Source of the DNA: Chloroflexota bacterium
Lineage (GTDB): Bacteria > Chloroflexota > Dehalococcoidia > UBA2247 > RBG-13-53-26
Length of the DNA stretch: 64,000 bases
Direction: 5' to 3'
Assembly: GCA_026389585.1 (NCBI GenBank)
Contig: JAPLHP010000036.1
Coordinates: forward strand, 41,366 to 105,365
How positions within the stretch are numbered: position 1 is the first letter of the stretch; the number at the start of each line of letters is the position of its first letter. Under the pieces are notes generated by a model, which saw nothing but the letters and a program-made list of their open reading frames with translations, was not told the origin of the DNA and did no database searches. The translations under genes were made by a program, and so were the position numbers. Of this stretch, positions 2,457-53,377 are shown piece after piece.

Positions 2457-2457
2457 T

Positions 2458-2571: not shown

Positions 2572-2594
2572 CAACTCCAGACCCCTACAGGCTG

Positions 2595-10318: not shown

Positions 10319-10398
10319 CTGACAAGAAGATAAGCAGTGCCAGGCCAGTTGTGAGATATGGCGTCGTGCTGAGAGGCCAACCTTCTCAGCCGAGATAC

Positions 10399-10965: not shown

Positions 10966-10982
10966 ATCGCCCTCCCTGCACT

Positions 10983-21896: not shown

Positions 21897-22093
21897 GTCA
21901 GTCCTACTGCTTTACAGGCCATCTGCACAATTTCCGCATAATACCGACCTTCCTACCAACTCTCAAAGTAGTAGCCTGTAGCACATGAACTACACGTGAC
22001 TGCACTTATTGGATGCAGGGAATCTTATTGTGTATTAGTAGTCTAGTAGAGTAGATGATGTTTGGATAATAGATAGTAATAATAGTAGTAGGC
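21897..22093. promoter_or_regulatory. AT-rich region downstream of dnaA, candidate DNA-unwinding element / DnaA-box region of oriC
   Basis: TAGTAGT-rich stretch with near-consensus DnaA box TTTGGATAA. Lies at the strand-switch next to dnaA. Confidence 0.4.
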
Positions 22094-34565: not shown

Positions 34566-35198
34566 TTATGTGTTCTTAACCGCCCGTTTTTCAACCAGTC
34601 TTGCAAGCTCACCTTCATCACCTATGAGAAAAATCTTATCACCCTCGAGTACTATCTTCAGGAAGTGATGGTTCTCCCGCATTTTCTGCTTGAATTCGGA
34701 GGTAGGGTAGACAACCGGATTTACCTCTCTTCCCAGCGTCTTTTGAGACGGACTGATGAGTGAGACGATTTCCGAAAAGGTTGTCTTGCCTATTACCATC
34801 ATATCTATATCACTTGTTCTTTGTTCCGCTCCGCTGGCGATGGAACCGAAGATAAAGGCAACCTGTATCTTTCGCGCCGCCGGTCCTAAACTTTGCCGTA
34901 GCACGTCCGCCACTCCGAACGTCTTGGTTACAATACTCTTAAGCTCTGCGTAAATGGGACAACTCTTGTTTGCCCGGTAATAAACTTGCCTTCCCTGCAC
35001 CTCGCGGCTGATGATGCCGGTGTCCGTCAGGTTTTTCAGCTCCCGCTGTACCGTTCCGCGACCAGTTTTAACGGCATCCAGTATTTGTTTCGTATAGAAG
35101 GAGCTATCTGTTTGGCCGTAAAGAAATGCCAGGACTGCCTGCCGGGTTTTGCCGAAAAGGCCGCTGCATAATGAACTATCAGTCATATTCTTACCCAT
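34566..35198 (-). CDS. winged-HTH + minimal nucleotidyltransferase (MNT) fusion protein
   Basis: N-terminal ArsR-like wHTH (GKTRQAVLAFLY...GTVQRELKNLTDTGII), then NTase motif FGSIASG...SDIDMMV. Confidence 0.7.
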   Translation of the reverse strand: MGKNMTDSSLCSGLFGKTRQAVLAFLYGQTDSSFYTKQILDAVKTGRGTVQRELKNLTDTGIISREVQGRQVYYRANKSCPIYAELKSIVTKTFGVADVLRQSLGPAARKIQVAFIFGSIASGAEQRTSDIDMMVIGKTTFSEIVSLISPSQKTLGREVNPVVYPTSEFKQKMRENHHFLKIVLEGDKIFLIGDEGELARLVEKRAVKNT

Positions 35199-35879: not shown

Positions 35880-36077
35880 ATCTCAGCCACCAACTGCCTT
35901 CTGAATGGTGGTGACGTGCTCTCTTTGCAGCAGATACTCGGGCACTCAAGCCTGGAGATGGTGCGGAGGTATGTGACGTTAGCGTCAGCCCGGGTCATGG
36001 TGCAACACAGGAAGTTCTCGCCGATGGACAGAATGAATCTTGGCAGAATGTGGCTGACTCGAGTGCCTCGCAACTAG
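35880..36077 (+). pseudogene. tyrosine recombinase/integrase C-terminal remnant
   Basis: LLNGGDVLSLQQILGHSSLEMVRRYVTLA matches the integrase C-terminal LGHsss.tT..Y.H region with catalytic Tyr. Upstream catalytic R/H boxes are degraded; only ~65 codons remain. Confidence 0.65.
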
Positions 36078-36952
36078 GGCAGGGACGCACGCAGAGCGGC
36101 AATGATTCGTTCTCCCTTGTTGGGGTCTTCACCAGCCGCACGCTTCTTGGCGACATATTCTTCGAGAATGCCCAGCGCTGCAACGTTTGAAACGTAGCGG
36201 AACAGGCCCGTTGCCCAAGCTGTCGAGCCTGGATTATGTGGATTCGTGTGATATTTCCAGAAATCGATCTCGTATCCTAGCATATCGTCCAGTGCACTGC
36301 TCTTGTCTCCAAAGATCTTGGTTTCTCTGCCAGGGTCTTCAACAAGCTTGGTGATTGCGAAAGCGCCCACCACAAAGCGGTCTCTGCGGTCTGGAGGCTC
36401 GGTGGTGAGAAGGGCTATCTTGCCTACTCTCGCGCCCCTGATCTTTCTGGGGCGGATCATCGTGCCATGTTCATCGGAGTCCCATCCCGCTGCGAAGTAG
36501 AAATCAATCAACGCTGTCGACTCATAGCATGGACTCCGTAGAGCTAGGTCCTGACCAACAAAATCTCTGCATCTGCTGAGTAGGCAGTACGGTCCTCCGA
36601 ATCTTAAATTGTGGACGTATGCTTTGTCACTGCATATGCCCTTGTATCCCTTATCATTCCAGTTGCACTTGAAGGCAATATTGCCATCCTCTTTCTTGCC
36701 AACTTCGCGGCGCTGCAATCCATCCTCGATTTCTCGCGCCAGAGTCTCGATCCTACAGCGCCGGTTCTCAACTATTGTCCGATGTATCTCATTACTGGGA
36801 TTGGCTGCTTCCTGGAGGCGTTGGAACGTCTCCTCCGCCGTTGAAAGGTGTTCTGCTGCCTGTTGGTAGACGAGACCATGGATCAGAGCCCCAATGTTGT
36901 TTAGTTGCTGATCCAGGGACTCGCGGATAGTGCGTAGATCGTCATTGCCCAT
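36074..36952 (-). CDS. hypothetical cysteine-rich protein, last gene of defense operon
   Basis: Start at MGNDDLRTIRESL overlaps the GmrSD stop. Cys cluster CNWNDKGYKGICSDKAYVHNLRFGGPYCLLSRC. No domain recognisable by eye. Confidence 0.45.
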   Translation of the reverse strand: MGNDDLRTIRESLDQQLNNIGALIHGLVYQQAAEHLSTAEETFQRLQEAANPSNEIHRTIVENRRCRIETLAREIEDGLQRREVGKKEDGNIAFKCNWNDKGYKGICSDKAYVHNLRFGGPYCLLSRCRDFVGQDLALRSPCYESTALIDFYFAAGWDSDEHGTMIRPRKIRGARVGKIALLTTEPPDRRDRFVVGAFAITKLVEDPGRETKIFGDKSSALDDMLGYEIDFWKYHTNPHNPGSTAWATGLFRYVSNVAALGILEEYVAKKRAAGEDPNKGERIIAALRASLP

Positions 36953-38858
36953 TAGTTCGTTCCGGATATGCCCACAACCTAACCGCCAAGTCGGCCAGTC
37001 TCTCGCTACGCGTCCTGATCGTAGTCTCGTTCCACACATCGTCATCGGAAAACTGCTGAAAATAGGAGTTGAGGATCAGCAGGCTCTGTTTTGTGATTTC
37101 CGCGCGCTTTGCCCTGAAGGGGCCGTTGCTGACTTCAGAATTGAGCGGTTGGGTCAGCAGTGTCAGGTTGCCGAGGCTGTGAATGGAAGACCAACGCCTC
37201 GATTCCATCTCCTTTTTTTCAGCCGCCTGATGTTCTGGGTAGGGCCATTCTTCTGGCTTGAACTTCTGGGGCATTATGTGCTCAATCGTCAGATTGTTGT
37301 TGATCGGCACAGGTGAAAGCTGCGATTCCTGACTTGGGGTCCGGTTGGCCAATTCGAGGGCAGTGAGAACCATGCGCATCCTCTTGGGGCCGAGGGAATC
37401 GTACAACGGTTCGTACATAAGGCTCTTTAGGAACGCCTCGTTGCCTGGCCAAACAGAGCTATCCCCCTCCAATGAAAGCAATTCGCGACGCACAGACACA
37501 TGACTCGGCATTCCTTCTCTGCTCAGCTTGGTAAGAAGACCAAGAAAAATGCGGTTGTAATTCTTGGGCGTCAGCCTGCATATGGCCCTTCGAACAATGT
37601 AGGACTCAATGTCAGCCAGTATGCGGGCAAACTCCTCTGCTGCTATCTGGTCTCGGTCTTCACACAGCCAGAGCATGAACGGGTAGACGGTTGTCGTGTC
37701 CAGTGCCCGAAGTCTCTGGGCCAGTATTCCTAGCCGACTGGTGTCATCTGCCTCCAGAAGTGAGCGGAATACTGAGCTCGACCGCTTGGCTGTTTCCAGC
37801 TCCAGTTCTAGGGAGCGCTCGGTCAACTCACCGTCCCACCACTCTTTGAATTCCTGGTAAAGATGTCCCATCTTGATCTCGTGACCTGCACGATACGTGA
37901 GATAGTGAAAGAAGAACAAGTCCAGCCGACTGCGGAACAACCTCCCTTGCCTTTCCTTTTCCTTCCAGAACTTGCCTGTCGACCCACCCGCTTCGTCATA
38001 ATCCTTCCACCATTGGTTGTATAGGGCATTCACATCCTTGTTCTGCCTACTGGCATACAGGAAGATGAAGTTCCTGATCAAGTCGGAGGGTTCGAGTGGG
38101 ACACCTCTATAGTTGAGGGTCTCGAATATCACCTGTGGATCGTCCTCCACGTCAAGTTGTATCTCGACGATTTGCACATAACGCATTACCGCTTCAAAGA
38201 GTAAGTTAGCGAGTTCTCTCATCGACTCTTGGCTAGACGTTTGGCTCGGTAGCGCCTCCTCCTCATCAATGCCACTTAGGAATCTCTTGATGACATCGTG
38301 GAAGTAGAAATAGGCTTCGACCAAGGCCGGGCGCGGGGGAACTAGCTTCTTCCGATGGAGCTTCTGCGGATATTTGGCTGCAAGTGCTTCGGCGGATCCT
38401 GCCTTCATCACATTCTTGACATCTTCTTGATAGGCATTCGTGGGCCACACCTTGAATTGCTCATCGGCGTTGTAGAATGGGCCGGGATTACCAGTTAGGC
38501 GGCCGAGCTGCATCTTGAGGTAGTCATCGCCCGACTCGACCACTGCATCTCTAAAGGCAGCCAGGAAGACTTGTAGGGTGAGCAATCGCTGTTGCCCATC
38601 TATGATTTCAGAAGCAGGCATTTGCCTGATCACGGTGGGCACCTGGCTCAGAACAATGGCACCAAGGAAATGCTTGCGAATTGTGTTCCTTGAAGCTCCC
38701 TTATGAACCTGCACCAACCTGGCCTGTTCCGCTATGTCACCCCAAAGCGGTTGCCATTGCTGGTCTTGTGTCCAAACATACCCACGCTGAAAAATCGGCA
38801 CCAGGTAGCGCCGCTGCCTTTCAAATAGATCGAATACGGTGATCTTATCTGTCTTCAT
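36942..38858 (-). CDS. GmrSD-family type IV (modification-dependent) restriction endonuclease, DUF262 + DUF1524
   Basis: 638 aa. N-terminal ParB-like DUF262 with IIDGQQRL motif. C-terminal HNH-like DUF1524 (NNNLTIEHIMPQK...NLTLLTQPLN). Confidence 0.8.
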   Translation of the reverse strand: MKTDKITVFDLFERQRRYLVPIFQRGYVWTQDQQWQPLWGDIAEQARLVQVHKGASRNTIRKHFLGAIVLSQVPTVIRQMPASEIIDGQQRLLTLQVFLAAFRDAVVESGDDYLKMQLGRLTGNPGPFYNADEQFKVWPTNAYQEDVKNVMKAGSAEALAAKYPQKLHRKKLVPPRPALVEAYFYFHDVIKRFLSGIDEEEALPSQTSSQESMRELANLLFEAVMRYVQIVEIQLDVEDDPQVIFETLNYRGVPLEPSDLIRNFIFLYASRQNKDVNALYNQWWKDYDEAGGSTGKFWKEKERQGRLFRSRLDLFFFHYLTYRAGHEIKMGHLYQEFKEWWDGELTERSLELELETAKRSSSVFRSLLEADDTSRLGILAQRLRALDTTTVYPFMLWLCEDRDQIAAEEFARILADIESYIVRRAICRLTPKNYNRIFLGLLTKLSREGMPSHVSVRRELLSLEGDSSVWPGNEAFLKSLMYEPLYDSLGPKRMRMVLTALELANRTPSQESQLSPVPINNNLTIEHIMPQKFKPEEWPYPEHQAAEKKEMESRRWSSIHSLGNLTLLTQPLNSEVSNGPFRAKRAEITKQSLLILNSYFQQFSDDDVWNETTIRTRSERLADLAVRLWAYPERTNGQ

Positions 38859-39210: not shown

Positions 39211-41976
39211 CTACCATGGCCGCATCAATGCTTCCCTCTTCGCAGCTCCGCTCAAGACCTGGGCACAGGACTCCCAGTCTGTGCGCTCGATTTTCTGATA
39301 ACGGATCTCGAACGGGTGCTTCTCAGGAACGGCATCAATGATGCGCTTGGCTTGCTCCTCCTCACCGATAGCAACGTCAATCCAGACATCTTCAAGTACG
39401 TCAGGAATCTGCCCAAACAGGCTAAATATACTCTGAAGCCTAATGGACAATAATTGGTGAACGCGATCCTCGACAGATCCCAAGTAGCGCATGTTGTAGA
39501 CGTATACAATATCGTTGAGCTGCCCGATACGCTGTATCCTACCTTTGCGTTGTTCGAGACGCGTGGGATTCCATGGAAGGTCCAGGTTGATGAGCGTGCC
39601 GAGTCTCTGAAGGTTCAGCCCCTCAGATGCGGCGTCAGTCCCGAGCAGGAGGCGGATCTGCCCATTACGCACGCCAGCCTTAATCTCCTCCCGGTCGACC
39701 GGCGTGAATGAGCCGTCCTTCCACATGCCGGATTTACCGCTGCCTGCGTAAATAGCGATTGGCTCGTCGGGGAAGTCAAGGACGAGTTCTTTGGCCAGCC
39801 ACTGCACTGAATCATAGTACTGGCTGAAGACGATGCACCCCTTATCGAGCCAGCTTCGCCCCCGGAGGCAATCAAGGACTACGGAGTACTTGGGGTCTCG
39901 CTCCTGATTGGCTTCAAGCGCCTTGACGAATCTTTCGAGCAATACCCGCTCCTCATCGGTCAGAGTCTTTAACGTGCTCAGGGATGCGGCAGGATTCTCA
40001 TCCTCGCTCTCCGCGTCCGAATCCAAGGTGAACGAGCCGAGGTCTCGCCACGACGCCAGCATGGTCTCGGCTGTGGCTTTGCCTGCCGCGATACTGCTGC
40101 CCACCCGGCGCAGGAGGAGCGTGCGAAGAAAACCTGAGCCCTTCATGCGGGCACCAAGCTGCCGACAGAACTCCTCAGCCAGTTGGTATGCATCTCTGAG
40201 GAAGAGGGGTAAGCGGATGGCATCCTCGTCGCGATCCCCTAGAAGTTCGACACGGATCGGTTTTAGGTACGGCTCGCCGGTTTCAGGGTCGATTGTCTCC
40301 TCAAGATACTTGCGGCTCCGCCGTACGATATGGCGGATGAACGGATTATGCTGGTCAACAAAACGAGGGAACATGGCGTGCACACGGGCCTTGTCGGGAG
40401 GATTAAGACGGTCCCAATCGCTGCCGCCGGCAGACACTTCCATGTCGGTCATTCCCAGCGACCGACGCAGGATCTCGAAATCTCGATGCTCGGAGGATGG
40501 GGGTAATGGTGTGCGGACCCATTGCCACATGTCCAGTTCATCCTCCAGCTGTCTCGCCGTGCCCAGTACCAGCGGCAGGGCTCTTTCGGCATGGTGCCAC
40601 TCACTCCATGCGCCACCAAGGACAGCCTCGCTACCACGGCTCAGGATGTCAAGGAGATCCCAAGCCTCCACAGGGCGGATCTGAACGGGTGTCGCAGTCG
40701 CCAGGAGCATGCTCTTGGTGTGCTTTGACAGTTCATAGAGGAATTGAAGCAAGTTGTTCGGATCAGGTTTCTCCCCGTCACGACCTTCGCCCAAGTTTCG
40801 ACGGCGGGCGTTGTGTGCCTCGTCAACGATGATGCATTCATAGTCAAGGTGTTTGAGGTGCTCAGAATCCTCGCACTGAAAGACGGCCCTTGAAGTAGGA
40901 ACAATGCCAACGCGCCGCGGACAATTGCGTATTGCCTGGGGACCAACAGAAGGGTACTCGACACCGCGCTCATCCACCCATTGCTTCCCTGTCCATACGG
41001 CGGAGGGCATGTCAAGCAGGTCGTTGAGCTCATCCCGCCACTGCCAGACAAGCGCTTTCGGTGCGAGCACCAGGATTGGTTTGGTGCTGCATAGGGCCAT
41101 CAGCTCAGCCGCCATGGCGAGCTGAATGGTCTTGCCAAGGCCGACCTGGTCGGCGAGAACAAATCGCGCTCCTCCGGGGCTATTGAGATGTGCATCGAAC
41201 GCCAGCTTCACGAAGAACTTCTGGTGCTCCCAGAGACCCGCCTGCTGACGATAGACCGATGCCTCGATAAAGACCGATGCAGGTGTTGGAGCCACTGGCA
41301 ACGTGCCTGAGGGCCTCGCCCAGTCCTCCACCGAACTTATGACAGAGCGTTTGCTGAGGCGAGCGACATCTTCGATGACAAATTCCGCAAGCGGCACCGC
41401 GGCATGGTGAGTCCATAGGGCATCAAACTCTTCTTGGACCCAGGCCACAGCCTCCGGCGATGAGTCTTCCCACAGAAGTTCGTAATTCAGTGTCCATGCT
41501 GACCGTGATTCATTGACGCTGCCCAAGAAGGCAGTGCGACTCCCATCAGCAAGCATGATTACCCCGGCCTTGCCGTGAACGAGCCCGAAGTACTCATCCG
41601 GGAGCACTCTCACTTGTAGCTTCCCGCTGCGCAGGAACTCGTGAAGACGCGAAAAGCGGTTACGAGTTGCCTCTCCCCCAGATTCGACCAGCGTCTCGGG
41701 ACGCGAGCTACACCACTCCTGTCGAACGGCTGCAGCGGCGGCTCGAGCTGTGGCAACGTCTTGAGGTCGCAGCCCCGAGTTGCACACGATGCGTACAAGT
41801 CCGGTCACGCTCTCAATGGCTTCGCCAGCCACCTCAAGGATAGATCCGGAGAAGTATCCGGCGATGCGGTCATAAGCTTGCGCACCATGCAGGCGGTCTG
41901 TGAAGAATGACCGGTCCAGTCGTTGCCGCCTGGAGGAAAAACGCCGAATTTGGCTGTGGGCAACAGGGTCGTTCAT
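39211..41976 (-). CDS. PLD-family nuclease domain fused to SNF2/DEAD-like helicase
   Basis: N-terminal HKD motif (HGKAGVIM...GSVNES). Helicase motifs: Walker A GLGKT, DEAH box IIVDEAHNARR, C-terminal helicase motif LLLGTDAASEGLNLQ, motif VI QRKGRIQRIGQ. Start taken at MNDPVAHSQ. Confidence 0.8.
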   Translation of the reverse strand: MNDPVAHSQIRRFSSRRQRLDRSFFTDRLHGAQAYDRIAGYFSGSILEVAGEAIESVTGLVRIVCNSGLRPQDVATARAAAAAVRQEWCSSRPETLVESGGEATRNRFSRLHEFLRSGKLQVRVLPDEYFGLVHGKAGVIMLADGSRTAFLGSVNESRSAWTLNYELLWEDSSPEAVAWVQEEFDALWTHHAAVPLAEFVIEDVARLSKRSVISSVEDWARPSGTLPVAPTPASVFIEASVYRQQAGLWEHQKFFVKLAFDAHLNSPGGARFVLADQVGLGKTIQLAMAAELMALCSTKPILVLAPKALVWQWRDELNDLLDMPSAVWTGKQWVDERGVEYPSVGPQAIRNCPRRVGIVPTSRAVFQCEDSEHLKHLDYECIIVDEAHNARRRNLGEGRDGEKPDPNNLLQFLYELSKHTKSMLLATATPVQIRPVEAWDLLDILSRGSEAVLGGAWSEWHHAERALPLVLGTARQLEDELDMWQWVRTPLPPSSEHRDFEILRRSLGMTDMEVSAGGSDWDRLNPPDKARVHAMFPRFVDQHNPFIRHIVRRSRKYLEETIDPETGEPYLKPIRVELLGDRDEDAIRLPLFLRDAYQLAEEFCRQLGARMKGSGFLRTLLLRRVGSSIAAGKATAETMLASWRDLGSFTLDSDAESEDENPAASLSTLKTLTDEERVLLERFVKALEANQERDPKYSVVLDCLRGRSWLDKGCIVFSQYYDSVQWLAKELVLDFPDEPIAIYAGSGKSGMWKDGSFTPVDREEIKAGVRNGQIRLLLGTDAASEGLNLQRLGTLINLDLPWNPTRLEQRKGRIQRIGQLNDIVYVYNMRYLGSVEDRVHQLLSIRLQSIFSLFGQIPDVLEDVWIDVAIGEEEQAKRIIDAVPEKHPFEIRYQKIERTDWESCAQVLSGAAKREALMRPW

Positions 41977-41983
41977 GGTCTCC

Positions 41984-44974
41984 TCATACGTTGTCCTGCC
42001 GGTTCCGTAACGCACCAGCTAGCAACGCCGCCGCCTCGGCATCCTTGTGCCAGTGAACCAACGAAGTGTGATGGCGCAGCGCTGCGAGAAACTCCAGTAT
42101 GTCGATCAGGCGGGCTCGGTTGCTGGCGTAGTCTTTGATCTCCGTGGTGAACCATGTGATGGCTTCGCGTGTGCTGTCCATTTCTGTGGTCATGAAGACT
42201 CCGAACAATGCGTGGCGCACTAATGTGTCGCCGAAGCCATCTCCACCAAGATCCTTACGGCCGAATTCGCTGGCGGTTTTGAGGCGAGTCTGGTTGGCCT
42301 TCGTGCTGGCCAGAAGCGGTTTGTACTCCCTGACGCCGAAGCCGCGGGCGAGTTCTTGATATACCCCATTTCGATACTCACCGTGGCTCTCCATCTCCAA
42401 ACCCTTGAGGTAAAGCCGCTCAACAGCGGCCAAAGATTTCCACAAATGCCTATCAATGCCACGTGGCACCAAGTGGTCGCAGGCGATGGCCACAGCCTTG
42501 CGGATGACATCTTCTACTGGCGATACTTCTCCGCGGGCGCGAGTGCGGGTAAGCTCGTAGTTGACATCTATCTCTTCGATATTCTTGGAGGTGAGCACGC
42601 GTAGGGCAGCAGCATAGGCGGCAAGCTGGTAGTCTGTGTCGGCAAAGCTGGGGTCTCTCTCGTCGTCCATGGCGAGCATCGAGTCGAGCTGGTGTCGGAC
42701 CTCTGTTTCGACCTCAGGGTACACTTCGTCAAGGAAAGATGCCCCCTGCGGGCTCTGCTTGCGGAGGATCAGCAGCACAGTGCCTTGCACATAGTTGCCT
42801 TCCTTAAGAGGTGAGGATGTCTCGGTGGCGATGCACCAAGCTGCGGTTACGCGCAGTCCTGCGGCCCACAGGATGAGAGCCAGATCAGCCCACACGCCAG
42901 CGTCCTGATGGGTGAACATAACAACCTGCAGGCCGTTGTCAGGCATGTGCTGAGCCATGTTGCGGTAGCAGTCGACCATCGCCTTGCGAAAGCTGTCGTC
43001 ACTGCCCTTCACCGCCAGAGCTCGTTTAGAATCTGCATACCATTCTGGAAAGAGTTTGACAAGGTGAGTCTCGTACCAAGCAAGGAAGTATTCGGAGAGT
43101 TCATCATATTGAATGGCATCACCGTACGGGGGATCGGTGATCCACAGATCAGATACGTAGCCGCACTGACGAGCGTCAAGTGCCAGCACTTTGCCGCTGC
43201 CCACCACTTGCGCCCGGTTGATTAGGGCCATCCAAGTTGTTTGGAGGGCTGGCAAAGGCCTGACCCCAAAGTTGGATAGAGTGTTCAAAGCTTGGTTGCT
43301 GAAAGTCTGTTCAGTCTTCTCATTTGCTGCATTGGAGTGCCAACGGCAAAGCCGTGAGTTCCAGTCACTGCACCGGCCTATTGCCAAGACAAGAGCTGCT
43401 TCTTCCGCCGGAGAAGCTCCGGCATCGGCCGCAGCAGCGGCAAGCAAGCCGTTGACGAGAAGTTGCCTCGGTGTGAAGAGGTGGTGCCAGTGTGTCCAGC
43501 CACGCGTCCGAATGGGCTCGTCTGTCTTCACGCCCGGCTCGATCCGGCGACTTGGGATGAAGCCCTTCTGCTGCCAGTCCGTAAAATGCTCCATCAGGAG
43601 ATCCAATACACGCTGCTCACGCGCAAGGTCCTTAGCTGTCGGTGAGCGATAGTACCGCGCGCTGTGCTCCTTCCCTCCCACGTCGGTCCAGGTGTCAACC
43701 CAGCGGATGCAGTATAGGCGCTCGCCGAAAACATCACCATCGCGTGGAACGATATCGCCATTCTCCCAGCCTCTGAGCAAGCTTCTACTCTCGCTGAAGG
43801 TTCCGCGTCCATCTCCCCGTATCGCGCGAATCGGGGTGGGGTGAGCTTTGCACTGCGGGCAAATCAGTTCTGATTCCTTGGCTGTACCTGCTCGGTGTGC
43901 GGCTTCCAGCGCCTCATCCAAGACGCCTTGGACTATCTCGAAATCATAGCAGCAACGCTTGTCATTTGGCACAAGGCGTGCAATCGTTCTGCTGCCCCTT
44001 CCAATAACCCAGGAGGATGCAAGCGGTATGCGCCAGTTGCACTCGGGACACGTGACCTCGACACAATACAAGTAGGCATCGGCCCGCCAGCGTCGGCCCG
44101 TTTTGGGATCAGGCTCGCTGTGTTCAATGCCCCATGCGGTCACTTGGCGATCAACTTGTTCGAAAACAGTTCGCTGGATTCTCTGGACTCCTTCTGCTAC
44201 CTTTGGCACACCCCCCACGATCTTCAACGCGGCCCACGTAAGCAGTGCCGCCACCGGGTTCAAGTCGCTGCCATAGGCCTCACAGCCAATGCGGGCCGCC
44301 TCAAAGGGAACCGACCCGCCACCACAAAAGCAGTCGCCCACCCGAGGGACATGGCCAAAGCGGTTCTGGCCAAGCTCGGCAACTAAGTCAGCAAGCGAGG
44401 CGGCATGGGTACCAAGATGGGCATTGATAATCCGCCACGATTCGGCAGATGGTCCATCAACTTGCTCCGGGCGGACGCAGTATTCCTGCTGTTCGTCGTA
44501 CGATAGGCCGAGGAAAACTCGATGCTGCAGCTCATCCTTCTCGTGGCTTGTAATGCCTTTCTTGAGTTTGGGTTCCGTATCCGTAGAGCCAAGGTCGAAG
44601 TAGCGGCTTTGATCTGTGGGCCCAAGACATCGAAACAACTTGGCCGCCGGTATGTTCTTTGACTTGCGGCCGAGCATTCCGTCTTCATCCATAGTCATCA
44701 GTCGTAGGAAGACTTCTCGGTCTCGGGCTGCGTCAGTAGTTGCGGGCAAGAGCAGACCCAGGATTGTGGCTCGGCAGAGCACAAGGGGTTTACGCCCCCA
44801 CCACTTCCCCAGGCCGGTCAAAGTCTGGCTCTGTTTTGCGGTCCGCTCAGCATAACTCTCCTTCGAGAGCTTCGAGACGGGAAACTGAGTCTCAATTAGG
44901 CATAGCTCGGAACGCTGGAGCGATGCCGTGTGTTGTGCCGTTTCTGTGACTGTGGTCGGCATGTCTCTATTCAT
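41984..44974 (-). CDS. DUF1156 (COG1743) Zn-ribbon-containing DNA amino-methyltransferase
   Basis: 996 aa. N-terminal ETQFPVSKLSKESYAERTAKQ...GKWWGRKP is DUF1156-like. SAM-MTase motif IV WITDPPYGD. Cys clusters CPEC...CPQC. Confidence 0.75.
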   Translation of the reverse strand: MNRDMPTTVTETAQHTASLQRSELCLIETQFPVSKLSKESYAERTAKQSQTLTGLGKWWGRKPLVLCRATILGLLLPATTDAARDREVFLRLMTMDEDGMLGRKSKNIPAAKLFRCLGPTDQSRYFDLGSTDTEPKLKKGITSHEKDELQHRVFLGLSYDEQQEYCVRPEQVDGPSAESWRIINAHLGTHAASLADLVAELGQNRFGHVPRVGDCFCGGGSVPFEAARIGCEAYGSDLNPVAALLTWAALKIVGGVPKVAEGVQRIQRTVFEQVDRQVTAWGIEHSEPDPKTGRRWRADAYLYCVEVTCPECNWRIPLASSWVIGRGSRTIARLVPNDKRCCYDFEIVQGVLDEALEAAHRAGTAKESELICPQCKAHPTPIRAIRGDGRGTFSESRSLLRGWENGDIVPRDGDVFGERLYCIRWVDTWTDVGGKEHSARYYRSPTAKDLAREQRVLDLLMEHFTDWQQKGFIPSRRIEPGVKTDEPIRTRGWTHWHHLFTPRQLLVNGLLAAAAADAGASPAEEAALVLAIGRCSDWNSRLCRWHSNAANEKTEQTFSNQALNTLSNFGVRPLPALQTTWMALINRAQVVGSGKVLALDARQCGYVSDLWITDPPYGDAIQYDELSEYFLAWYETHLVKLFPEWYADSKRALAVKGSDDSFRKAMVDCYRNMAQHMPDNGLQVVMFTHQDAGVWADLALILWAAGLRVTAAWCIATETSSPLKEGNYVQGTVLLILRKQSPQGASFLDEVYPEVETEVRHQLDSMLAMDDERDPSFADTDYQLAAYAAALRVLTSKNIEEIDVNYELTRTRARGEVSPVEDVIRKAVAIACDHLVPRGIDRHLWKSLAAVERLYLKGLEMESHGEYRNGVYQELARGFGVREYKPLLASTKANQTRLKTASEFGRKDLGGDGFGDTLVRHALFGVFMTTEMDSTREAITWFTTEIKDYASNRARLIDILEFLAALRHHTSLVHWHKDAEAAALLAGALRNRQDNV

Positions 44975-44988: not shown

Positions 44989-45732
44989 CTATTGAGAGCG
45001 GCTCGAATCTGACCCAAAGCCCAGCTGATTCGCCGCTTTTGCTCGCCGCGTTTTCCGTGACTTCCTGGCACTCCCTGTTGAGCTATGGGCTGTGCCCTCT
45101 TGAGCTGTAAGCTGGTCGGATTCGCTCATTGACTGGCTCACTAAGCGGAAGAACTCTGGCACAATCGGCTGATCGGGAGGACGGTCAGAGACCGGGTTCT
45201 CAGTCAGGGCAAATCGCACTGCCTTGCGCCAACCTCGCCCTCGGCCATCGGCGTAGCTGCCGGTAGCCGCCGCCGTCATGGTGTATAGCCACCAGCGCTC
45301 CTCGGGTGTCAGTCCCCGCCAGTTGGCGACCGCCGTAGGTATGAGGGCAGGGTCAGCATCTTCAAGAGCCCAGGTGAGGAGGGTCAGTTCTTTACCCAGC
45401 ATGCGGCTAACCGTATTGTAACCAGCTTTCCAGCGCCCCGGACGTTTGCCCTCTCTCTTGAGGCGCAAGTTGAACTCCGCGCGCACCAAGTCGGCGACTG
45501 CGTTCCATTTCGGCCGATCAAGTTGGCTTTTCACCTGGCCATCAAGACGCTCACCGTAGTGAACCGAATCGGCGATGCGATCGGGATCCCACGACAGATG
45601 TTCACTGATTGTGATGGGTTGCGTCGTGCCAGCAGGAATGTGAACCAGGAAATGGGAAACTGACTGGTTGGGGTCAAAGCCGAAAGTGTCGACAAGCACG
45701 TCCGGACTAGGTTTCTGGTTACGTTCAGCCAC
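44989..45732 (-). CDS. DUF3780-like protein (inferred from position between DUF499 and DUF1156 genes)
   Basis: 247 aa. Position and size match the DUF499-DUF3780-DUF1156-helicase arrangement predicted in defense islands. Family call relies on synteny, not verified motifs. Confidence 0.45.
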   Translation of the reverse strand: MAERNQKPSPDVLVDTFGFDPNQSVSHFLVHIPAGTTQPITISEHLSWDPDRIADSVHYGERLDGQVKSQLDRPKWNAVADLVRAEFNLRLKREGKRPGRWKAGYNTVSRMLGKELTLLTWALEDADPALIPTAVANWRGLTPEERWWLYTMTAAATGSYADGRGRGWRKAVRFALTENPVSDRPPDQPIVPEFFRLVSQSMSESDQLTAQEGTAHSSTGSARKSRKTRRAKAANQLGFGSDSSRSQ

Positions 45733-48700
45733 TATTGCCTCACCTCTGAAGCCTGATAGTCGGTCTTGTTCTCATTGATCCAGTCGAGGAACCCCTGCCC
45801 GCGCTCAAAGTGGAGGGCCGATACCTCGATACCGAGTTGACCTTCGTTGGTGAGCTTGCGGACGGCATCGGCGGCCTCCCGCAGGGCATCCGCACCAAGT
45901 TGGATCTTCTCATGCAGAGTGAGCTCAGCCCAACGGTTGCCCGTCACGCTGACCTTGATTCCACTCATGGACATGGGATGAGCCTTCAGTCTCTCCAGGA
46001 AACCATACGACTCGAGCGTGGTGTTAAACTCATGACGCCTGGTCCACGTCAGGGGTCTATCGGGGTCAATTTGCTTGTCCGTGTCGGGTCTGTCCCAAAG
46101 TATCTCGGCAGTCAACACTTCCGAGACGACGTCGCCGTGCATCGCTACCGCCAGGACGAACCGCGTGCCACGATGGACCTCGAAAGGCTCCTCGTAAGTA
46201 CCACCGGAAACCTTGGGGTCTGAGCCATCCGTGGTGTACTTGATCTCGGTGCGCCCGTCCTTGTTGGGGGCAGCTCGGAGCTCAACAATCTTGTTCCCTC
46301 TCTTGCCCGCGTAGGTCTTGTATTTCAAAGTCAGGCGGTTGCGCCACTTGTGATCCGGGCCAGAAGCATGCGTTCGCGTAGAATCCACGGCCAGAAACGA
46401 GACCTCCATTTCGCTCGTTCGATAAAGACCCTGCTCGACCTTCTGGGAGGCTTCCGTCGCATCAGCGCCGACTTCGGCGTACACAGTGTCGCCGTGCACA
46501 GGCGTAACCTTCAACTCCACCTCTCCAGTATCTTCATGGCGTGAGCGCTCCTGTATCTGCACCGAAGTGGTCTTGGGTGGTGGTGGGTTCCGGTCAACGT
46601 AGCCCGCCGGATCCTCGCGCCAGACCTCACGGTATACAAGATCATCCTTGATAGCATCGAGCGCCTCGCGACGGTGCCACTGCCACTGAGGGTTCATGGC
46701 AGCACGTCGCTTGACTTCGCTCCACAACATAACGGGTGTCGTAAACAGACGCGCTTCAATCTTCTTGCGGAATGTATCGCTCGTAACGTCTTCGGTGTAC
46801 TTCTGCTTGTCCTTCAAGACCTGGATGACCTGGTCCTCGCCGTTGTACTTGTTCCCCTCGTACTTCATCAGGAAGTCAGCAGAAAGGAAGACATCCGTAT
46901 CATTTTGACGGAAGGGGTAGTACAGAGTCGAGAATGTCTCTTTGACCGCTGAGAGGAACTGGCCCAGAATGCGATCCCGGAGTTCATCTGCCTGCTTGAA
47001 CTGAGGGTCCGTCTGAGGAGTCTTGTCCGCCTCCATTTCGTCGAGAATATGTTGGATAGCCTTGAGCCGCTTGGCGCTGTCGATTAGTGTGTCGAAGGTA
47101 TTGCGCGAACCCGTCAAGACGGCGATACGATTCTTGAAGGGAGTCTGCCCGTAGAATTGGACGAGTTGGGGGTTCAGACCCTGGCCAACGTAGGGCTCGG
47201 AGATGACGAGAGAGATGCGATCCTGGAACACTTGAATCTCGTCGATGGACGGCAGCACCAGTACTTCCTGATAGCACCAGCCCATCGGCGGTTTGAAAAG
47301 GGTCTTGAGGCGCTCTCTGAGTTCTTTCAATGCCTGTTCTCGGACATATGCAGTGGACAGCGACTCCAGCTTCGCGACGAGGTTCTGGACGTTCTTGAAG
47401 AACAGCCTGCCGTCACGATTGGAGTGGAGGTACCAGGCTGCAGTGGCAAGCTTCTCGAGAATATCGCTCTTGAGACGGGCCAGATTCCTACCGGGCGCGC
47501 AGAGGTAGCCCACCACTTCCGGGATGGTTAGGCCGACAACAGCATTCGGGACATTGGCCAGCGAAGACATGAAGATGAGCCGACATGCGTCCTGCGTGTC
47601 ATTCGTGCCCAGGTTCTGATCCATGACTTCGGCGACTGCTTTCCCCTGAGATGCAATATCGTGGGCCACGGCGTTGTCCAGTGTGGGGTTGATCTGGCGG
47701 ATTTCCGACAGGGTCTCGGGGTCGTTCAAGTCTATGTTGTGCACGCCAATGAGATACACCTTCTCCGCTTCCCCCGATTGCCACAGTCGCGAGGTGATGA
47801 TGCGCATCAGGCGGATCAGTGCACGGGTCTGCTGGAATCCGGGATTTTCACGAAAGCGTGCATACAGGTCTTTGATCGAAGGGTGGAACGGGTAACTGTC
47901 TTGGATGAACTGCGCAAACTTCTCTGGCGACTGGGCCGTAATGTCCATCTGTCGCGCCTCGCGGATGGCCTTGGCATATGCTTGGGCGACCTCTGTCACC
48001 TCCTCGTTTGGTGGCAGGTCCTTGAACAGGCGCTTCCGCAGGATGTGATAGAACTCATCTGTGTTGATTTGAACCGGCGTCAGGTTCATCGAGTGCCTTT
48101 GGGCCTCGCTCTGAAGCTGCTTCAGCAGGTCGGCGATCTGGGCACTAGCTTCGGCATAAGTGCCGACAAGGTCAGTCAGCACGATGCACACGTTGGCTAG
48201 CTCTTTCTCTGCGACTGCTTCGAAAAGGTTGGTCAGTGCTGTGGCCGTGACGTGCGAAAGATCTGAGTTGCCGACGGCGATTGACTTGGCGTTATCGAGG
48301 TAAGGTGGCAGTTCGTCGAGGAGTATCAGGGTAGGCTTGCCTTTGAGCAGGTTTATCCAGGCTGAGCGGCCCGGAGCCTTCAGCGGCGAATAGTAGTCCT
48401 TGAAGTCGGCATGTCTACCTATCTGACGCGCTATCTCTCCCCAGATACCGTGTGGAACGTCGGTTTCGCGGCCTGAGAAGGCAATGACTCGCACGGGTGG
48501 CAGCGCCTTCGCGCTTGGCAGTCCGGGCAGAACAGCTGCACGGAGTTCCGGATGCTTCGCCAACAGGCCAAGAGTGATGAGGTTATGTGTCTTGCCCCCA
48601 CCCATCGCCTGGGTGAGTTTGAATACTGCCTGCTCCGAACGACCCTCAAGTCGCCGGAGGGCCTCCATAAGCAGAGTTCGCATCCCGTCCGTGACATAGT

Positions 48701-48833
48701 TCTCTTCGAGGAAGGCCCTAGTGTCGATCTTGTCTTCGGCCAGATGCATCAGGTTGAGAACGGTGTCGCGACGAGCCGCGTCGAAGACGCTCTCGCGTGG
48801 TGTGCATAGGGTCTTGATCGATTTCATTTGCAC
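45732..48833 (-). CDS. DUF499 / BrxC-PglY-like P-loop ATPase
   Basis: 1033 aa, Walker A AMGGGKTHNL near the N-terminus, Walker B ILLDELPP. Size and architecture match DUF499. Confidence 0.7.
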   Translation of the reverse strand: MQMKSIKTLCTPRESVFDAARRDTVLNLMHLAEDKIDTRAFLEENYVTDGMRTLLMEALRRLEGRSEQAVFKLTQAMGGGKTHNLITLGLLAKHPELRAAVLPGLPSAKALPPVRVIAFSGRETDVPHGIWGEIARQIGRHADFKDYYSPLKAPGRSAWINLLKGKPTLILLDELPPYLDNAKSIAVGNSDLSHVTATALTNLFEAVAEKELANVCIVLTDLVGTYAEASAQIADLLKQLQSEAQRHSMNLTPVQINTDEFYHILRKRLFKDLPPNEEVTEVAQAYAKAIREARQMDITAQSPEKFAQFIQDSYPFHPSIKDLYARFRENPGFQQTRALIRLMRIITSRLWQSGEAEKVYLIGVHNIDLNDPETLSEIRQINPTLDNAVAHDIASQGKAVAEVMDQNLGTNDTQDACRLIFMSSLANVPNAVVGLTIPEVVGYLCAPGRNLARLKSDILEKLATAAWYLHSNRDGRLFFKNVQNLVAKLESLSTAYVREQALKELRERLKTLFKPPMGWCYQEVLVLPSIDEIQVFQDRISLVISEPYVGQGLNPQLVQFYGQTPFKNRIAVLTGSRNTFDTLIDSAKRLKAIQHILDEMEADKTPQTDPQFKQADELRDRILGQFLSAVKETFSTLYYPFRQNDTDVFLSADFLMKYEGNKYNGEDQVIQVLKDKQKYTEDVTSDTFRKKIEARLFTTPVMLWSEVKRRAAMNPQWQWHRREALDAIKDDLVYREVWREDPAGYVDRNPPPPKTTSVQIQERSRHEDTGEVELKVTPVHGDTVYAEVGADATEASQKVEQGLYRTSEMEVSFLAVDSTRTHASGPDHKWRNRLTLKYKTYAGKRGNKIVELRAAPNKDGRTEIKYTTDGSDPKVSGGTYEEPFEVHRGTRFVLAVAMHGDVVSEVLTAEILWDRPDTDKQIDPDRPLTWTRRHEFNTTLESYGFLERLKAHPMSMSGIKVSVTGNRWAELTLHEKIQLGADALREAADAVRKLTNEGQLGIEVSALHFERGQGFLDWINENKTDYQASEVRQ

Positions 48834-49247: not shown

Positions 49248-50600
49248 ATGGAAGTGAGAGATCCTCTGTACGGTTTGGTGGAGTATGGGACAGATGAAGA
49301 GAAGATAATAAACAGCATCGTACTTCAGAGGTTGCGAAACATAAAGCAGCTTGCATTGGCTAGCGCTGTCTATCCTGGTGCACATCACTCGAGGTTTGAA
49401 CATAGTATTGGCACCATGCATTTGGCTGGGATGGTAGCGAAGAGGCTGGGGCTAGAAGCGGAAAGGCCTGTTCTGCGACTCGCTGGACTGCTGCATGATG
49501 TTGGGCATGGGCCGTTCTCTCATGTCTCTGAACAAGTTATGGAGGGATATGCAAGTGACATCATGGCCAAATATCATGCAGATGGCGTACACGAATTGAT
49601 CAGTATGATGCTTATTGAGAGGCTTGGCAGCTTGGCAGGAGTGACACTCGAAAGCGGTGTTACATCCGGGATATGCGAGCTTCTCAAGAAACAACCTAGA
49701 AGGTCTTTGCAGCAAGGCATCATCTCGGGTCCGTTGGATGTCGACAAACTTGACTATCTTCGGAGGGATAGCTACTTCGCCGGGGTTCAGTACGGAGCCT
49801 TTGATCTCGATAAGGTGATTCATAGCCTCACCAGGATAAGGATCAGTAGTGAAGAAGAACAACTAGGTTTTCATGAGGAGGGTGTCCATGCAGTTGAACA
49901 GCTCCTACTTGCAAAGTACCACATGAATGTGCAGGTCTATCAGCATAGGATTAGGCGCATAACTGATGCAATGCTGGTTAGTGGCATTAGGTTTGCCTTA
50001 GAGGAAGGAGTTGGTGAAGTCCAAAGGCTTTTCACTGTGGAGGATTCTGATGCTTACCTGCAGTACTATATCTCGAACAATGATAATACTCTCATGGACA
50101 CAGTCCTACAGAAAGGCAAGGAAGGGTCGAGAGAGCTGTTTCAGCGCATAAAGGAGCGCAAACTTCTGAAACAAGTGTTTTCACTCGAGATAAGCAGAGA
50201 CAACTTTCCAGACGCAGTTCAGATGGACAACATATTGCGCTTGTCTGATGCACAATTGCACCAGATAGCACAACGGGCAGTGGAACTCTATTCTGCAACA
50301 GATAGCAGGCTGGATCCAAACCTGGTCATAGTGGACAAACAGACCATCTCTAATCCAACCTTCAAATCACCTCAGACCAGCATTGATCAAGGCACGATAA
50401 TGGTAAAGACGAAGTCTGGACAGAGAAAGGCTTTCCCAGACATATCCACTATCTTTCGGAACCCTAGCATAGATCCCAAAGTCGAGGTTCTCTACGTCTA
50501 CTTGCCTCTGGATTGGCTCGGAAGCAAGGGGGACAGGGATGCGTTCATCAACCAAAGATATGATACAATGGCTGAACAAGTGATGGAGGTGGTCAAATGA
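49248..50600 (+). CDS. HD-domain phosphohydrolase of the dGTPase/SAMHD1-like family
   Basis: HSRFEHSIGT...LLHDVGHGPFSH...DKLDYLRRDSYFAGV motifs of dNTP triphosphohydrolase-type HD proteins. Confidence 0.75.
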   Translation: MEVRDPLYGLVEYGTDEEKIINSIVLQRLRNIKQLALASAVYPGAHHSRFEHSIGTMHLAGMVAKRLGLEAERPVLRLAGLLHDVGHGPFSHVSEQVMEGYASDIMAKYHADGVHELISMMLIERLGSLAGVTLESGVTSGICELLKKQPRRSLQQGIISGPLDVDKLDYLRRDSYFAGVQYGAFDLDKVIHSLTRIRISSEEEQLGFHEEGVHAVEQLLLAKYHMNVQVYQHRIRRITDAMLVSGIRFALEEGVGEVQRLFTVEDSDAYLQYYISNNDNTLMDTVLQKGKEGSRELFQRIKERKLLKQVFSLEISRDNFPDAVQMDNILRLSDAQLHQIAQRAVELYSATDSRLDPNLVIVDKQTISNPTFKSPQTSIDQGTIMVKTKSGQRKAFPDISTIFRNPSIDPKVEVLYVYLPLDWLGSKGDRDAFINQRYDTMAEQVMEVVK

Positions 50601-51196
50601 GATTGGACGATCTCGTCATACTGACGCTGCATTTCAGCGACAACAAGATGATTGCTGGTCGGACCCTCCTACAAAAGACCCTCTACTTCCTTAACGCAAA
50701 GCTTAATCTGGGCGTGGAATTTGCGTCTCACTACTATGGTCCCTATTCCTCCGACGTTGCTGAGTCAATTGCCCGTCTGAATTCTGCTGGTATTCTGGAG
50801 GAAAGCATTGAGTACCTCCAACCGCTGAGTTTTGGAGTGACTTTCGAGCCCAGAAGGTTTACATACAGGCTTACAGACACTGGAAAGAGCATAGCAGAGA
50901 TTGCCGAAAGACGGAATGAGACCGAAGCCGAAGCGATCAAGGGAATCCTTGATCGCATGAAGAATCTAGGCGTTGTGGATGACTACAAGAGCCTGTCTAT
51001 TGCAGCAAAGATGCACCGTATATTGAAGATCGAGAAGAAACCTATGACAGCCTCGCAGGTTCTGGAAGAGGCCAAAGCCTTAGATTGGAGAATAGAAAAG
51101 GGAGATGCTGATGGAGCAGTGGTTTTTCTCAAGGGGATGGACTTAGTCATGGAATTCGAGCATCCTGCTGCAGCGAATACAGCAACCACGGCTTGA
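50597..51196 (+). CDS. Panacea (DUF4065/SocA-like) domain protein, putative antitoxin
   Basis: LLQKTLYFLNAKLNLGVEFASHYYGPYSSDV matches the DUF4065 core (L.KLLYf...g..l....f.aw.yGPv...vy). ATGA overlap with the HD gene. Confidence 0.55.
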   Translation: MRLDDLVILTLHFSDNKMIAGRTLLQKTLYFLNAKLNLGVEFASHYYGPYSSDVAESIARLNSAGILEESIEYLQPLSFGVTFEPRRFTYRLTDTGKSIAEIAERRNETEAEAIKGILDRMKNLGVVDDYKSLSIAAKMHRILKIEKKPMTASQVLEEAKALDWRIEKGDADGAVVFLKGMDLVMEFEHPAAANTATTA

Positions 51197-51727: not shown

Positions 51728-52228
51728 TTAGTCATGGGCCAGGCGGCGTATCGTTGCGTTTATGGAGTTGCTCTCACCTTGGGTGATCAAGCCGTCACGG
51801 ACCGCCAGCTTCAACAGGTCTCCTGTACCAAAGACAGCAATAGATAAACTCACAGCCTTACATGCTTCGCGTGCAAGGCCATCATCTGTCGCTATATCGT
51901 AGCCCCTGTTGCAGGCGATGGCTATTGACGCGGATTCGCCCAGCCCCAGCCTCCTTCCAAGGAGCAGGTTAGCATATATCGAGATTTCTTCCCCGGAGGA
52001 TTCATCAAGAGTAACCACGCAGATGGTACCGTCAACCTGCATCTGTGTTAGAAGAGCTATGAGATATTGCCCTCTACCGGGCCAGCGTGAGGCTTCCTGA
52101 AGGACCTGGCCGGTGATGCAGAAAGTGCCCTTTGGCCAGATTCCCAGCACTCGAGCTAGAGCTCCGGCAGAATACAGTCTTGAGACAACGTCGTTATCGA
52201 GGACAACAGGTCTGTTGAAAGGCGACAT
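51728..52228 (-). CDS. PIN-like domain protein (DUF4411-like), putative toxin partner of ImmA/IrrE
   Basis: 166 aa. N-terminal VVLDNDVV plus downstream acidic residues fit a PIN fold. ATG directly follows the ImmA stop. Confidence 0.5.
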   Translation of the reverse strand: MSPFNRPVVLDNDVVSRLYSAGALARVLGIWPKGTFCITGQVLQEASRWPGRGQYLIALLTQMQVDGTICVVTLDESSGEEISIYANLLLGRRLGLGESASIAIACNRGYDIATDDGLAREACKAVSLSIAVFGTGDLLKLAVRDGLITQGESNSINATIRRLAHD

Positions 52229-53377
52229 TCAGGCATCGCCTTCCTTACTTTCTCCACTAAGCTCGTCTCTGAGTTCGTAGTAGTTCCTCCTCAGGAGTTC
52301 GGCCAGCTTCTCAAATGAGACAAGTTTCGCCTTGTAAGCCTCGTATGCCAGATATTTGTAATGACGAGGAAGCATGTCAGGGGGATCCTCTCTGTCACAA
52401 TATCCCAGCAGGATGGCGATAGGTGATGTGGTGACTCGTTGAGTCATAATGCCTTGCCATCTGGAAAGCGAGAGCTTCCTGAGAGATACCAACCTCCAGC
52501 CGGTTGCTTCAAAGCTGGTGCCGAAATAAGTCGCTAGATGAAAGACGACCTCAGCCGTTGGGGCAGTTGTCTGTTTGGATACAAACTGGCTCAACATCTC
52601 ATTCATGGCGCGTCTGGGCATCAGGAAAGCAGCGGCAAATGCATTGGCGAAACGTTCGTGAGGACGCCGTGTCACAAATCCAGTGTCGGTGTCAATGTGA
52701 GCATGGGCTAACTGATTCCGATGGGCAATGCAGTGCCCATACTCGTGTGCCACAGTAAATGTGCGCCTCCGCTGAGGATGAAGTGAGTTGATTAGCAAGC
52801 AGGCGCCAAGGTCCTTGTCACACGCAAAAGCGCCGGAGAACCCTTGTGATTCCTCCGGCAGGTGAAATATCTTCACCCCCCTCTTCTTTTCCAGTAAGTC
52901 GCAAATATCCTTTATGGGCTGACTATCAAGGCCCATTGAGCTTCGCTCAGCCACTGCCAGGTCTTCGGCCTGTTCCAGTGTTGTTGGAGAAGCACTTGAG
53001 TAGTCAGGCGGCCCCGGCATCTCTGGCGCTCCCACGAGCTGCATCAGGTCTCGGTAGTCTTTGCATAAGTCTTGAAATCCGATGATTGTCTCCCGGGGAA
53101 CAGCTGCTGCTGAAGCAGCTCGGAGTAGAACGGAGAAGCAGGCACTGGACTCGTCCTGGTCAAAGAAGAAGGTCAGGGGACGATGATATAACTTGGCGAA
53201 CTTGTATAACTCTACGGCCGAGACACGTCGCTTCTGACTCTCAATGTCTGAGACGGTGGATGTTGCGAGGCCCATACTCTCGCCGACCTGGCTGAGAGTG
53301 AGTCCCAAGGCTGTTCTGGCTTGCCTCAGCATACGGCCGACTGCGACAGGCAAATCCGTCGTTGCACTAACAACCAT
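52229..53377 (-). CDS. XRE-HTH + ImmA/IrrE-family (COG2856) zinc metallopeptidase
   Basis: N-terminal HTH (LGLTLSQVGESMGLATSTVSDIESQKR). HExxH motif HEYGHCIAH. Confidence 0.75.
   Translation of the reverse strand: MVVSATTDLPVAVGRMLRQARTALGLTLSQVGESMGLATSTVSDIESQKRRVSAVELYKFAKLYHRPLTFFFDQDESSACFSVLLRAASAAAVPRETIIGFQDLCKDYRDLMQLVGAPEMPGPPDYSSASPTTLEQAEDLAVAERSSMGLDSQPIKDICDLLEKKRGVKIFHLPEESQGFSGAFACDKDLGACLLINSLHPQRRRTFTVAHEYGHCIAHRNQLAHAHIDTDTGFVTRRPHERFANAFAAAFLMPRRAMNEMLSQFVSKQTTAPTAEVVFHLATYFGTSFEATGWRLVSLRKLSLSRWQGIMTQRVTTSPIAILLGYCDREDPPDMLPRHYKYLAYEAYKAKLVSFEKLAELLRRNYYELRDELSGESKEGDA

Follow-up and report, generated by a model that had tools for sequence, protein, structure and literature searches.

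To which kind of anti-phage system does a protein belong that carries a phospholipase D (PLD)-type nuclease and a SNF2 helicase on one chain, and is such a chain unusual among its neighbours? The question is raised by a gene on the minus strand (39211..41976), hereafter called the PLD-helicase gene, in a 64,000-nucleotide stretch of DNA from a Chloroflexota bacterium (hereafter the window; contig JAPLHP010000036.1 of assembly GCA_026389585.1, positions 41,366 to 105,365). A preliminary description of the window had placed an N-terminal HKD nuclease motif ahead of a Walker A/DEAH/motif VI helicase core, and had read the fusion as an unusual combination of two different types of defence system. 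The PLD-helicase is very probably the ortholog of MtsD, the effector of a four-gene methylation-based anti-phage system described as Gao_RL/Gao_29, Type-2 BREX-related (BR) or MANTIS. Its architecture is already known, and the gene adds one more ordinary copy, from a Chloroflexi genome.

The longest open reading frame (ORF) of the PLD-helicase gene, 39211..42015, corresponds to 934 amino acids counted from the first GTG. An ATG at 41976, immediately preceded by GAGGAG and starting 7 nucleotides past the TGA of the upstream gene (41984..41986), gives 921 amino acids plus the stop codon, and this form is identical over all 921 amino acids (100% identity) to the NCBI protein P0001 from a Chloroflexi metagenome-assembled genome (MAG). 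In Pfam the N-terminal part matched PLDc_2 at 45.6 bits (E 7.8e-12, gathering score 27), and the helicase part matched Helicase_C (60.3 bits), SNF2-rel_dom (46.2 bits) and ResIII (31.5 bits); all of these exceed their gathering scores, and the matches lie far beyond chance. Two dedicated models cover the full length of the protein, namely the NCBIfam equivalog NF042964, "phospholipase D-like domain-containing anti-phage protein" (1255.4 bits vs a cutoff of 1100), and the PADLOC model PDLC02193 PLD_Helicase (796 bits). The PLD nuclease and the SNF2-type superfamily 2 (SF2) helicase are therefore confirmed to be parts of one polypeptide. The preliminary description was right about the layout: the N-terminal region is PLD-like by profile search, and all of the motifs that it named were located.

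The PLD-fold nuclease domain occupies residues about 10-190 (41407..41949), as delimited by Pfam, AlphaFold2 and Foldseek. The isolated N-terminus matched PLDc_2 with an E value of 1.2e-12. When the sequence of the PLD domain by itself was searched against the PDB, just NucT was returned, at E 0.14, and since this match was too weak a predicted structure was compared with the PDB by Foldseek instead. The AlphaFold2 model of residues 1-250, which had a predicted local distance difference test score (pLDDT) of 80.8, matched PLD-superfamily folds only, with E values of about 1e-5, among them Nuc (1byr), NucT (6ehi), Zucchini (4gel), vaccinia F13 and TrmBL2. Each chain has a single HKD half-site, and a complete active site would require the pairing of two PLD domains, as in Nuc and BfiI.

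The HKD-type catalytic motif HGKAGVIMLADGSRTAFLGSVNES corresponds to residues 134-157 (41506..41577) and includes H134, K136, G152, S153, N155 and E156. The motif lacks the Asp expected from the textbook HxK(x)4D, its conserved form being HxK...GSxNE...E. In a MAFFT alignment of 114 orthologs with 62-100% identity, H134, K136, G152, S153, N155 and E166 were invariant and E156 was kept in 113. At 28 related loci found in other genomes (51-74% identity), H134, K136 and G152 were present in every copy and the remaining catalytic residues in 27 of 28, the single exception being a frameshifted copy (L023). In cluster representatives with identities as low as about 37% the His was kept in 131/135, the Lys in 127/133 and the Asn in 121/127 (approximately 95%); this library of 50%-identity representatives consisted mostly of gene fragments, with 31 of the 150 listed proteins having at least 850 amino acids. 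The HKD residues are thus conserved among orthologs in all three sets, and the possibility of non-conservation, which the preliminary description had allowed for, was not borne out. In L023, a Nitrospirales ortholog (10001..12140 of that locus), the frame is lost just past HGK, which points to a frameshifted pseudogene or else to an error in the assembly.

Helicase lobe 1, the SNF2-related/ResIII part, corresponds to 40630..41226 and contains the Walker A motif GLGKT (residues 279-283, 41128..41142) and the DEAH motif (residues 385-388, 40813..40824). Lobe 2, the Helicase_C part, corresponds to 39523..39846, with motif VI, QRKGRIQRIGQ, at residues 809-819 (39520..39552). The lobes are separated by a mostly helical insert in the full-length AlphaFold2 model (residues 450-710, 39847..40629) which has no Pfam family, residues about 443-692 giving zero Pfam matches at E <= 1. 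Unique inserts have also been described in the helicase domain of MtsD (MANTIS preprint, bioRxiv 10.64898/2026.09.23.753747). No domain was detectable C-terminal of Helicase_C. The nearest solved motor, both by sequence and by fold, is RapA. The full-length model was of moderate quality (pLDDT 74.8, predicted template modelling score 0.58), and with it Foldseek found RapA and Snf2 chromatin remodelers, at low template modelling scores.

The PLD-helicase gene is the last of four genes which are all on the minus strand, running from 48833 down to 39211 in the order DUF499 - DUF3780 - DUF1156 - PLD-helicase, with overlaps or gaps of at most 14 nucleotides. The first (45732..48833) encodes an MtsA-like DUF499 AAA+ ATPase of 1033 amino acids, which was matched over its full length by the PADLOC DUF499 model (693.7 bits) and has a Walker A motif GGGKT (48588..48602) and a Walker B motif LLDE (48312..48323). 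Its Pfam matches were DUF499 (107 bits), Fn3_assoc and CHB_HEX_C_1, with the Fn3-like domains near the C-terminus. The second (44989..45732) encodes an MtsB-like DUF3780 protein of 247 amino acids (Pfam 164.4 bits, gathering score 27; PADLOC 147 bits). The third (41984..44974) encodes an MtsC-like DUF1156 N6-adenine DNA methyltransferase of 996 amino acids (NF042963, 1351.8 bits vs a cutoff of 1000; PADLOC DUF1156_MTase, 966.9 bits), with the S-adenosylmethionine-binding (SAM) motif FCGGG at 44315..44329 and DPPY at 43124..43135. The catalytic and ATPase motifs are intact across the cassette, including Walker A and B of the ATPase, FxGxG and DPPY of the methyltransferase, and HKD, Walker A, DEAH and motif VI of the PLD-helicase. 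Five consecutive PADLOC models (PDLC02189-02193) span all four proteins end to end, and the consecutive numbering of both the NCBIfam and the PADLOC accessions suggests that the four proteins were modelled by the curators as one system. The PLD-helicase had been assigned to a DUF499/DUF1156 operon, and the four co-oriented genes with their profile matches agree with this.

Operons of this kind have been described before. Bell et al. (2020, PMC7641849) reported an operon in which a COG1743 methyltransferase and a DUF499 protein accompany a SWI2/SNF2 helicase that is joined to a nuclease of the PD(D/E)XK or PLDc type. BREX-related systems centred on DUF499 were defined by Rakesh and Krishnan (2026, NAR, PMC12839542), and Type-2 of these comprised 1120 taxa. 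Two synapomorphies mark Type-2: the Swi2/Snf2 helicase bears an HKD endoDNase at its N-terminus in 921/1120 taxa (83%), and a stand-alone DUF3780 is present in 98% of taxa. Of the Type-2 ATPases, 53% have FnIII-like domains in tandem (PMC12839542). In the MANTIS preprint (bioRxiv 10.64898/2026.09.23.753747) the Type-2 BR system was equated with Gao_RL/Gao_29 and its proteins were named MtsA-D. In the Pseudomonas system MtsA, a DUF499 AAA+ ATPase of the ORC/Cdc6 clade, loads MtsC, hemimethylation at asymmetric 6-bp sites is stimulated by MtsB, and restriction needs all four proteins. Cryo-electron microscopy at 2.2 Å showed MtsD to be a dimer that has a single composite PLD site, and both the H122A and the Walker A mutants of MtsD abolished phage restriction (bioRxiv 10.64898/2026.09.23.753747).

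The window contains the PLD-SF2 effector, the DUF499 ATPase, the stand-alone DUF3780 protein and the DUF1156 methyltransferase in the order A-B-C-D, as well as the His and Lys of the PLD site. With DUF3780 in the cassette, the system belongs to BR Type-2/MANTIS and not to Hma. From its position in the motif, H134 was likened to H122 of Pseudomonas aeruginosa MtsD. The mutation of the HKD histidine and test of phage defence which had been proposed for the protein in the window thus has a published counterpart in the Pseudomonas homologue. The view that the fusion is unusual and combines two system types does not hold, since the fusion is the defining majority state of a family that has its own names in NCBIfam and PADLOC.

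Relatives of the PLD-helicase are numerous. A word-indexed search returned 4115 at E <= 1e-10, and 119 of the 120 best had a precomputed PLDc_2 match together with helicase domains. When 185,579 species genomes were scanned, 30 loci encoding a relative with 51-76% identity were found. The complete order DUF499-DUF3780-DUF1156-PLD-helicase was seen in 19 of these, which include Planctomycetota, Acidobacteriota, Nitrospirales, many Clostridia, Paenibacillus and one Methanosarcinaceae archaeon. Most of the other loci were ended by contig edges, and a few were degraded or had insertions of toxin-antitoxin-like genes. In RefSeq the same cassette is found on the megaplasmid of Thermomicrobium roseum, where the last two genes are annotated as "anti-phage-associated DUF1156..." and "phospholipase D-like domain-containing anti-phage protein". 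The latter product name is also borne by plasmid homologues from Acinetobacter, Bacillus, Deinococcus and others.

Insertions between the methyltransferase and PLD-helicase genes were seen at several loci. In L003 several small ORFs lie there one after another, arranged like toxin-antitoxin genes (1409..4243 of that locus). Extra sequence at the same junction was found in L014 (8935..9932) and L015, with a gene of about 311 amino acids, in L017 (8556..10001), with one of about 296 amino acids, and also in L005 (1080..2731). This junction therefore tolerates insertions.

Several observations weigh against the assignment to MANTIS. Two of the four proteins scored below their NCBIfam equivalog cutoffs while aligning over their full length, the DUF3780 protein with NF042961 (158.9 bits, cutoff 200) and the DUF499 ATPase with NF042962 (855.8 bits, cutoff 1200); the pattern of RefSeq names in T. 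roseum parallels these two scores. The nearest homologues on Proteobacterial plasmids were only about 38% identical. An MtsR-like repressor was not evident upstream of the DUF499 gene, where unconvincing small ORFs only were seen and no profile search was made. SauUSI (PDB 7CLG), the closest solved structure to MtsD (bioRxiv 10.64898/2026.09.23.753747), was absent from the Foldseek top 50 obtained with the full-length model of moderate quality (pLDDT 74.8). Cleavage by MtsD has not been reconstituted in vitro, even with the four proteins, ATP, S-adenosylmethionine (AdoMet) and metal (bioRxiv 10.64898/2026.09.23.753747). Residue 141 (41554..41556) is Met in the window, vs Thr in 108 of the 114 orthologs and at 27 of the 28 genome loci. 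The missing Asp is a trait of the family, and Met141 is a local substitution on top of it.

Membership of a related or superficially similar system was weighed against the orthology with MtsD. If the cassette were a member of Hma, or Type-1 BR (HmaA helicase, HmaB methylase, HmaC ATPase), in which the nuclease had been exchanged, the matches of the HmaA, HmaB and HmaC models in PADLOC to the three large proteins (118, 97 and 185 bits) and the evolutionary relationship of Hma to Type-2 BR would be accounted for. The dedicated models nevertheless score 4-10 times higher (796, 967 and 694 bits). HmaA has its PD-(D/E)XK nuclease at the C-terminus and a TUDOR domain at the N-terminus, in contrast to the N-terminal PLD found here with nothing after Helicase_C, and the Hma system lacks the DUF3780 which is present here. 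Membership of Hma is thus very unlikely and was rejected, and the earlier label "BREX/Hma-like" was close but imprecise. Canonical BREX (types 1-6) was also set aside, as the ATPase is of the DUF499 type rather than BrxC (DUF6079) and the PglX match to the methyltransferase was weak (44 bits). No PglZ match was found in the scanned proteins of the cassette and its flanks, the rest of the window not having been scanned exhaustively for PglZ. The chimera to which the preliminary description pointed, in which a DrmC-type PLD fused to a DrmD-type SNF2 helicase would have been recruited from DISARM into a DUF499/DUF1156 module, draws on the DrmD models being the next-best for the helicase core (PADLOC 127 bits, NCBIfam 151 bits) and on class 2 DISARM having a separate PLD gene. 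The DrmD equivalogs were, however, far under their cutoffs (NF038317, 151 vs 610 bits; NF038318, 119 vs 950 bits), and the isolated PLD domain had no DrmC match at E <= 1 in PADLOC, its nearest foreign match being PbeA with 83 bits. Neither a DrmA nor a DrmB gene was found among the scanned cassette and adjacent genes, nor did any scanned cassette or flanking protein match DrmB or DUF1998. Dedicated family models cover the whole PLD-helicase, and this origin was rejected as extremely improbable.

Whether the PLD-helicase acts with its neighbours, and whether its PLD domain is the effector, bear on the same choice. An autonomous, modification-dependent type IV enzyme like SauUSI, which merely adjoins the methyltransferase gene, would have the same layout of N-terminal PLD and SF2 motor, and MtsD is structurally similar to SauUSI 7CLG (bioRxiv 10.64898/2026.09.23.753747). 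SauUSI has, however, extra linker and target-recognition domains that MtsD lacks, and Pseudomonas MtsD requires MtsABC (bioRxiv 10.64898/2026.09.23.753747); no C-terminal target-recognition domain was detected after Helicase_C in the window. The synteny with DUF499, DUF3780 and DUF1156 is strict, and SauUSI was unmatched in the PDB sequence search and absent from the Foldseek top 50. An autonomous enzyme, to which next to no probability was given, was rejected on the lack of a recognition domain, the conserved four-gene operon and the lack of a 7CLG match. A degenerate PLD domain, serving as a non-catalytic scaffold or dimerisation module with the true effector elsewhere, would agree with the missing Asp of HxK(x)4D (Met141 in the window) and with the lack of in vitro nuclease activity of MtsD (bioRxiv 10.64898/2026.09.23.753747). 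A candidate for such an effector is a type IV restriction enzyme of the GmrSD family encoded at 36942..38858 (GmrSD_N 123.5 bits, GmrSD_C 83.5 bits; PADLOC mREase_IV 308 bits), 352 nucleotides downstream of the PLD-helicase gene on the same minus strand, with no terminator-like or promoter-like site found on the minus strand of the intervening gap. The catalytic residues of the PLD domain are nevertheless invariant, or in the case of E156 nearly so, among the 114 orthologs and kept to about 37% identity, and the H122A mutant of Pseudomonas MtsD has lost restriction. GmrSD is moreover absent from all 30 related loci, which makes it a local neighbour and not a core part of the system. The degenerate PLD domain was consequently rejected, its probability being very low.

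With the PLD-helicase taken as the MtsD ortholog, a mechanism may be proposed by orthology with the P. aeruginosa system. MtsA would put MtsC on short asymmetric sites, and MtsB would boost their hemimethylation, which would serve as the mark of self DNA. On incoming DNA MtsABC would recognise unmodified sites, with the inverted orientation favoured, and would thereby license MtsD. MtsD would be a homodimer in which the paired PLD domains form one shared active site that cuts the invading DNA, and the two SF2 motors of the dimer would spend ATP to move or communicate along the DNA ahead of cleavage. The preliminary description had proposed that a candidate effector nuclease is joined to a translocase, which is in agreement both with the domain content observed here and with the role of MtsD in Pseudomonas. 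Because MtsD-type proteins showed no DNA cleavage in vitro, it was also considered that plain double-stranded DNA is not the substrate of the conserved PLD site, which might need a special DNA structure or a collision intermediate, or might carry out a different phosphodiester transaction. This is unlikely, but if it were true the ortholog from this thermophile-lineage Chloroflexi could be a more tractable protein with which to resolve the activity.

The cassette lies within a defence island of roughly 33.4-56 kb in the window, in a chromosomal region that also contains dnaA and housekeeping genes. Enzymes of the GmrSD family are known to accompany BREX-type loci as auxiliary partners, and the GmrSD enzyme may be an auxiliary effector of the cassette. 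As a smaller, local possibility, the two might form a composite unit against unmodified and hypermodified phage DNA. Directly downstream of the GmrSD gene a minus-strand ORF of 323 amino acids (36074..37045) had no Pfam, PADLOC or NCBIfam match; its longest form overlaps the 3' end of the GmrSD gene by about 100 nucleotides, and the true start is probably further in. Further along the same strand (34566..35198) a Polbeta-type nucleotidyltransferase of 210 amino acids is encoded, with a PADLOC PDC-M05A match of 251 bits and a weak Csa3-like match at its N-terminus.

On the other side of the cassette two genes are divergent from it (plus strand, 49248..51196). One encodes a protein with HD and HD_assoc_2 domains and a weak match to a dGTPase model (38 bits), and it overlaps an ORF of 199 amino acids with a weak match to the C-terminal region of DarG (26 bits); the two may be a further defence gene pair. 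They are followed on the minus strand (51728..53377) by genes for a protein with HTH_3 and Peptidase_M78 (ImmA/IrrE-like) domains, matching the RmrA and CapP models, and for a PDC-S70-like protein of 166 amino acids, a pairing that suggests a protease-controlled regulator and effector. At the edge of the island two adjacent minus-strand ORFs of 297 and 383 amino acids (53630..55671), overlapping by 4 nucleotides, had no Pfam or PADLOC match. The dnaA gene (22094..23410, minus strand; Bac_DnaA 214 bits) coincides with the minimum of the cumulative GC skew near 22 kb, and on these grounds the window probably includes the chromosomal replication origin (about 22000..24000). The defence island begins approximately 10 kb from dnaA and this putative origin.

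As a discovery the fusion carries little weight, since NCBIfam, PADLOC and the RefSeq product names already list it for DUF499/DUF1156 operons, and it has been surveyed in more than 1000 taxa. The use of the analysis lies in the correct annotation of a complete and apparently intact MANTIS/Gao_RL cassette in a Chloroflexi defence island, and in the recording of the DISARM comparison as analogy, not homology. Like DISARM, the cassette has a PLD nuclease and a SNF2 helicase within a methylation-based defence, which in DISARM are the products of separate genes, drmC and drmD, and are fused here.

Among other known systems, Hma (PMC8565338, PMC11232893) has in common with the cassette a DUF499 ATPase, a DUF1156 methyltransferase and an effector that joins a nuclease to a Swi2/Snf2 helicase, as well as a logic resembling restriction-modification, and differs in that the nuclease of HmaA is a nickase and in the gene content and domain order discussed above. 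SauUSI resembles the PLD-helicase in being a PLD nuclease with an SF2 motor, dimeric and with a shared PLD site, the likeness to MtsD resting on the MANTIS preprint; it differs in having a C-terminal target-recognition domain for modified cytosine, acting alone and cutting modified DNA. PbeA of the PbeABCD/CxC-ABC ATPase systems (PMC6459918, PMC10853773) also combines an N-terminal HKD endoDNase with an SF2 helicase, and its models, the best non-self matches of the PLD domain, reach into helicase lobe 1. These models are approximately 630-720 residues long, vs 921 amino acids here, and the partners of PbeA are a CxC ABC ATPase and DndE, not DUF499 and DUF1156. The single-HKD nucleases Nuc, NucT, Zucchini and BfiI have the same fold, with one half-site per chain and an active site formed by dimerisation; the first three are stand-alone and BfiI is fused to a DNA-binding domain, none of them having an ATPase motor. 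From Pseudomonas MANTIS the cassette differs in belonging to a Chloroflexi MAG and in being known from its sequence alone, in having no evident MtsR repressor, in the scores of its MtsA-like and MtsB-like proteins below the NCBIfam cutoffs, and in Met141 in place of Thr. It shares with that system the four genes, their order and their common strand, one HKD per chain, intact catalytic and ATPase motifs, and Fn3-like domains on the ATPase.

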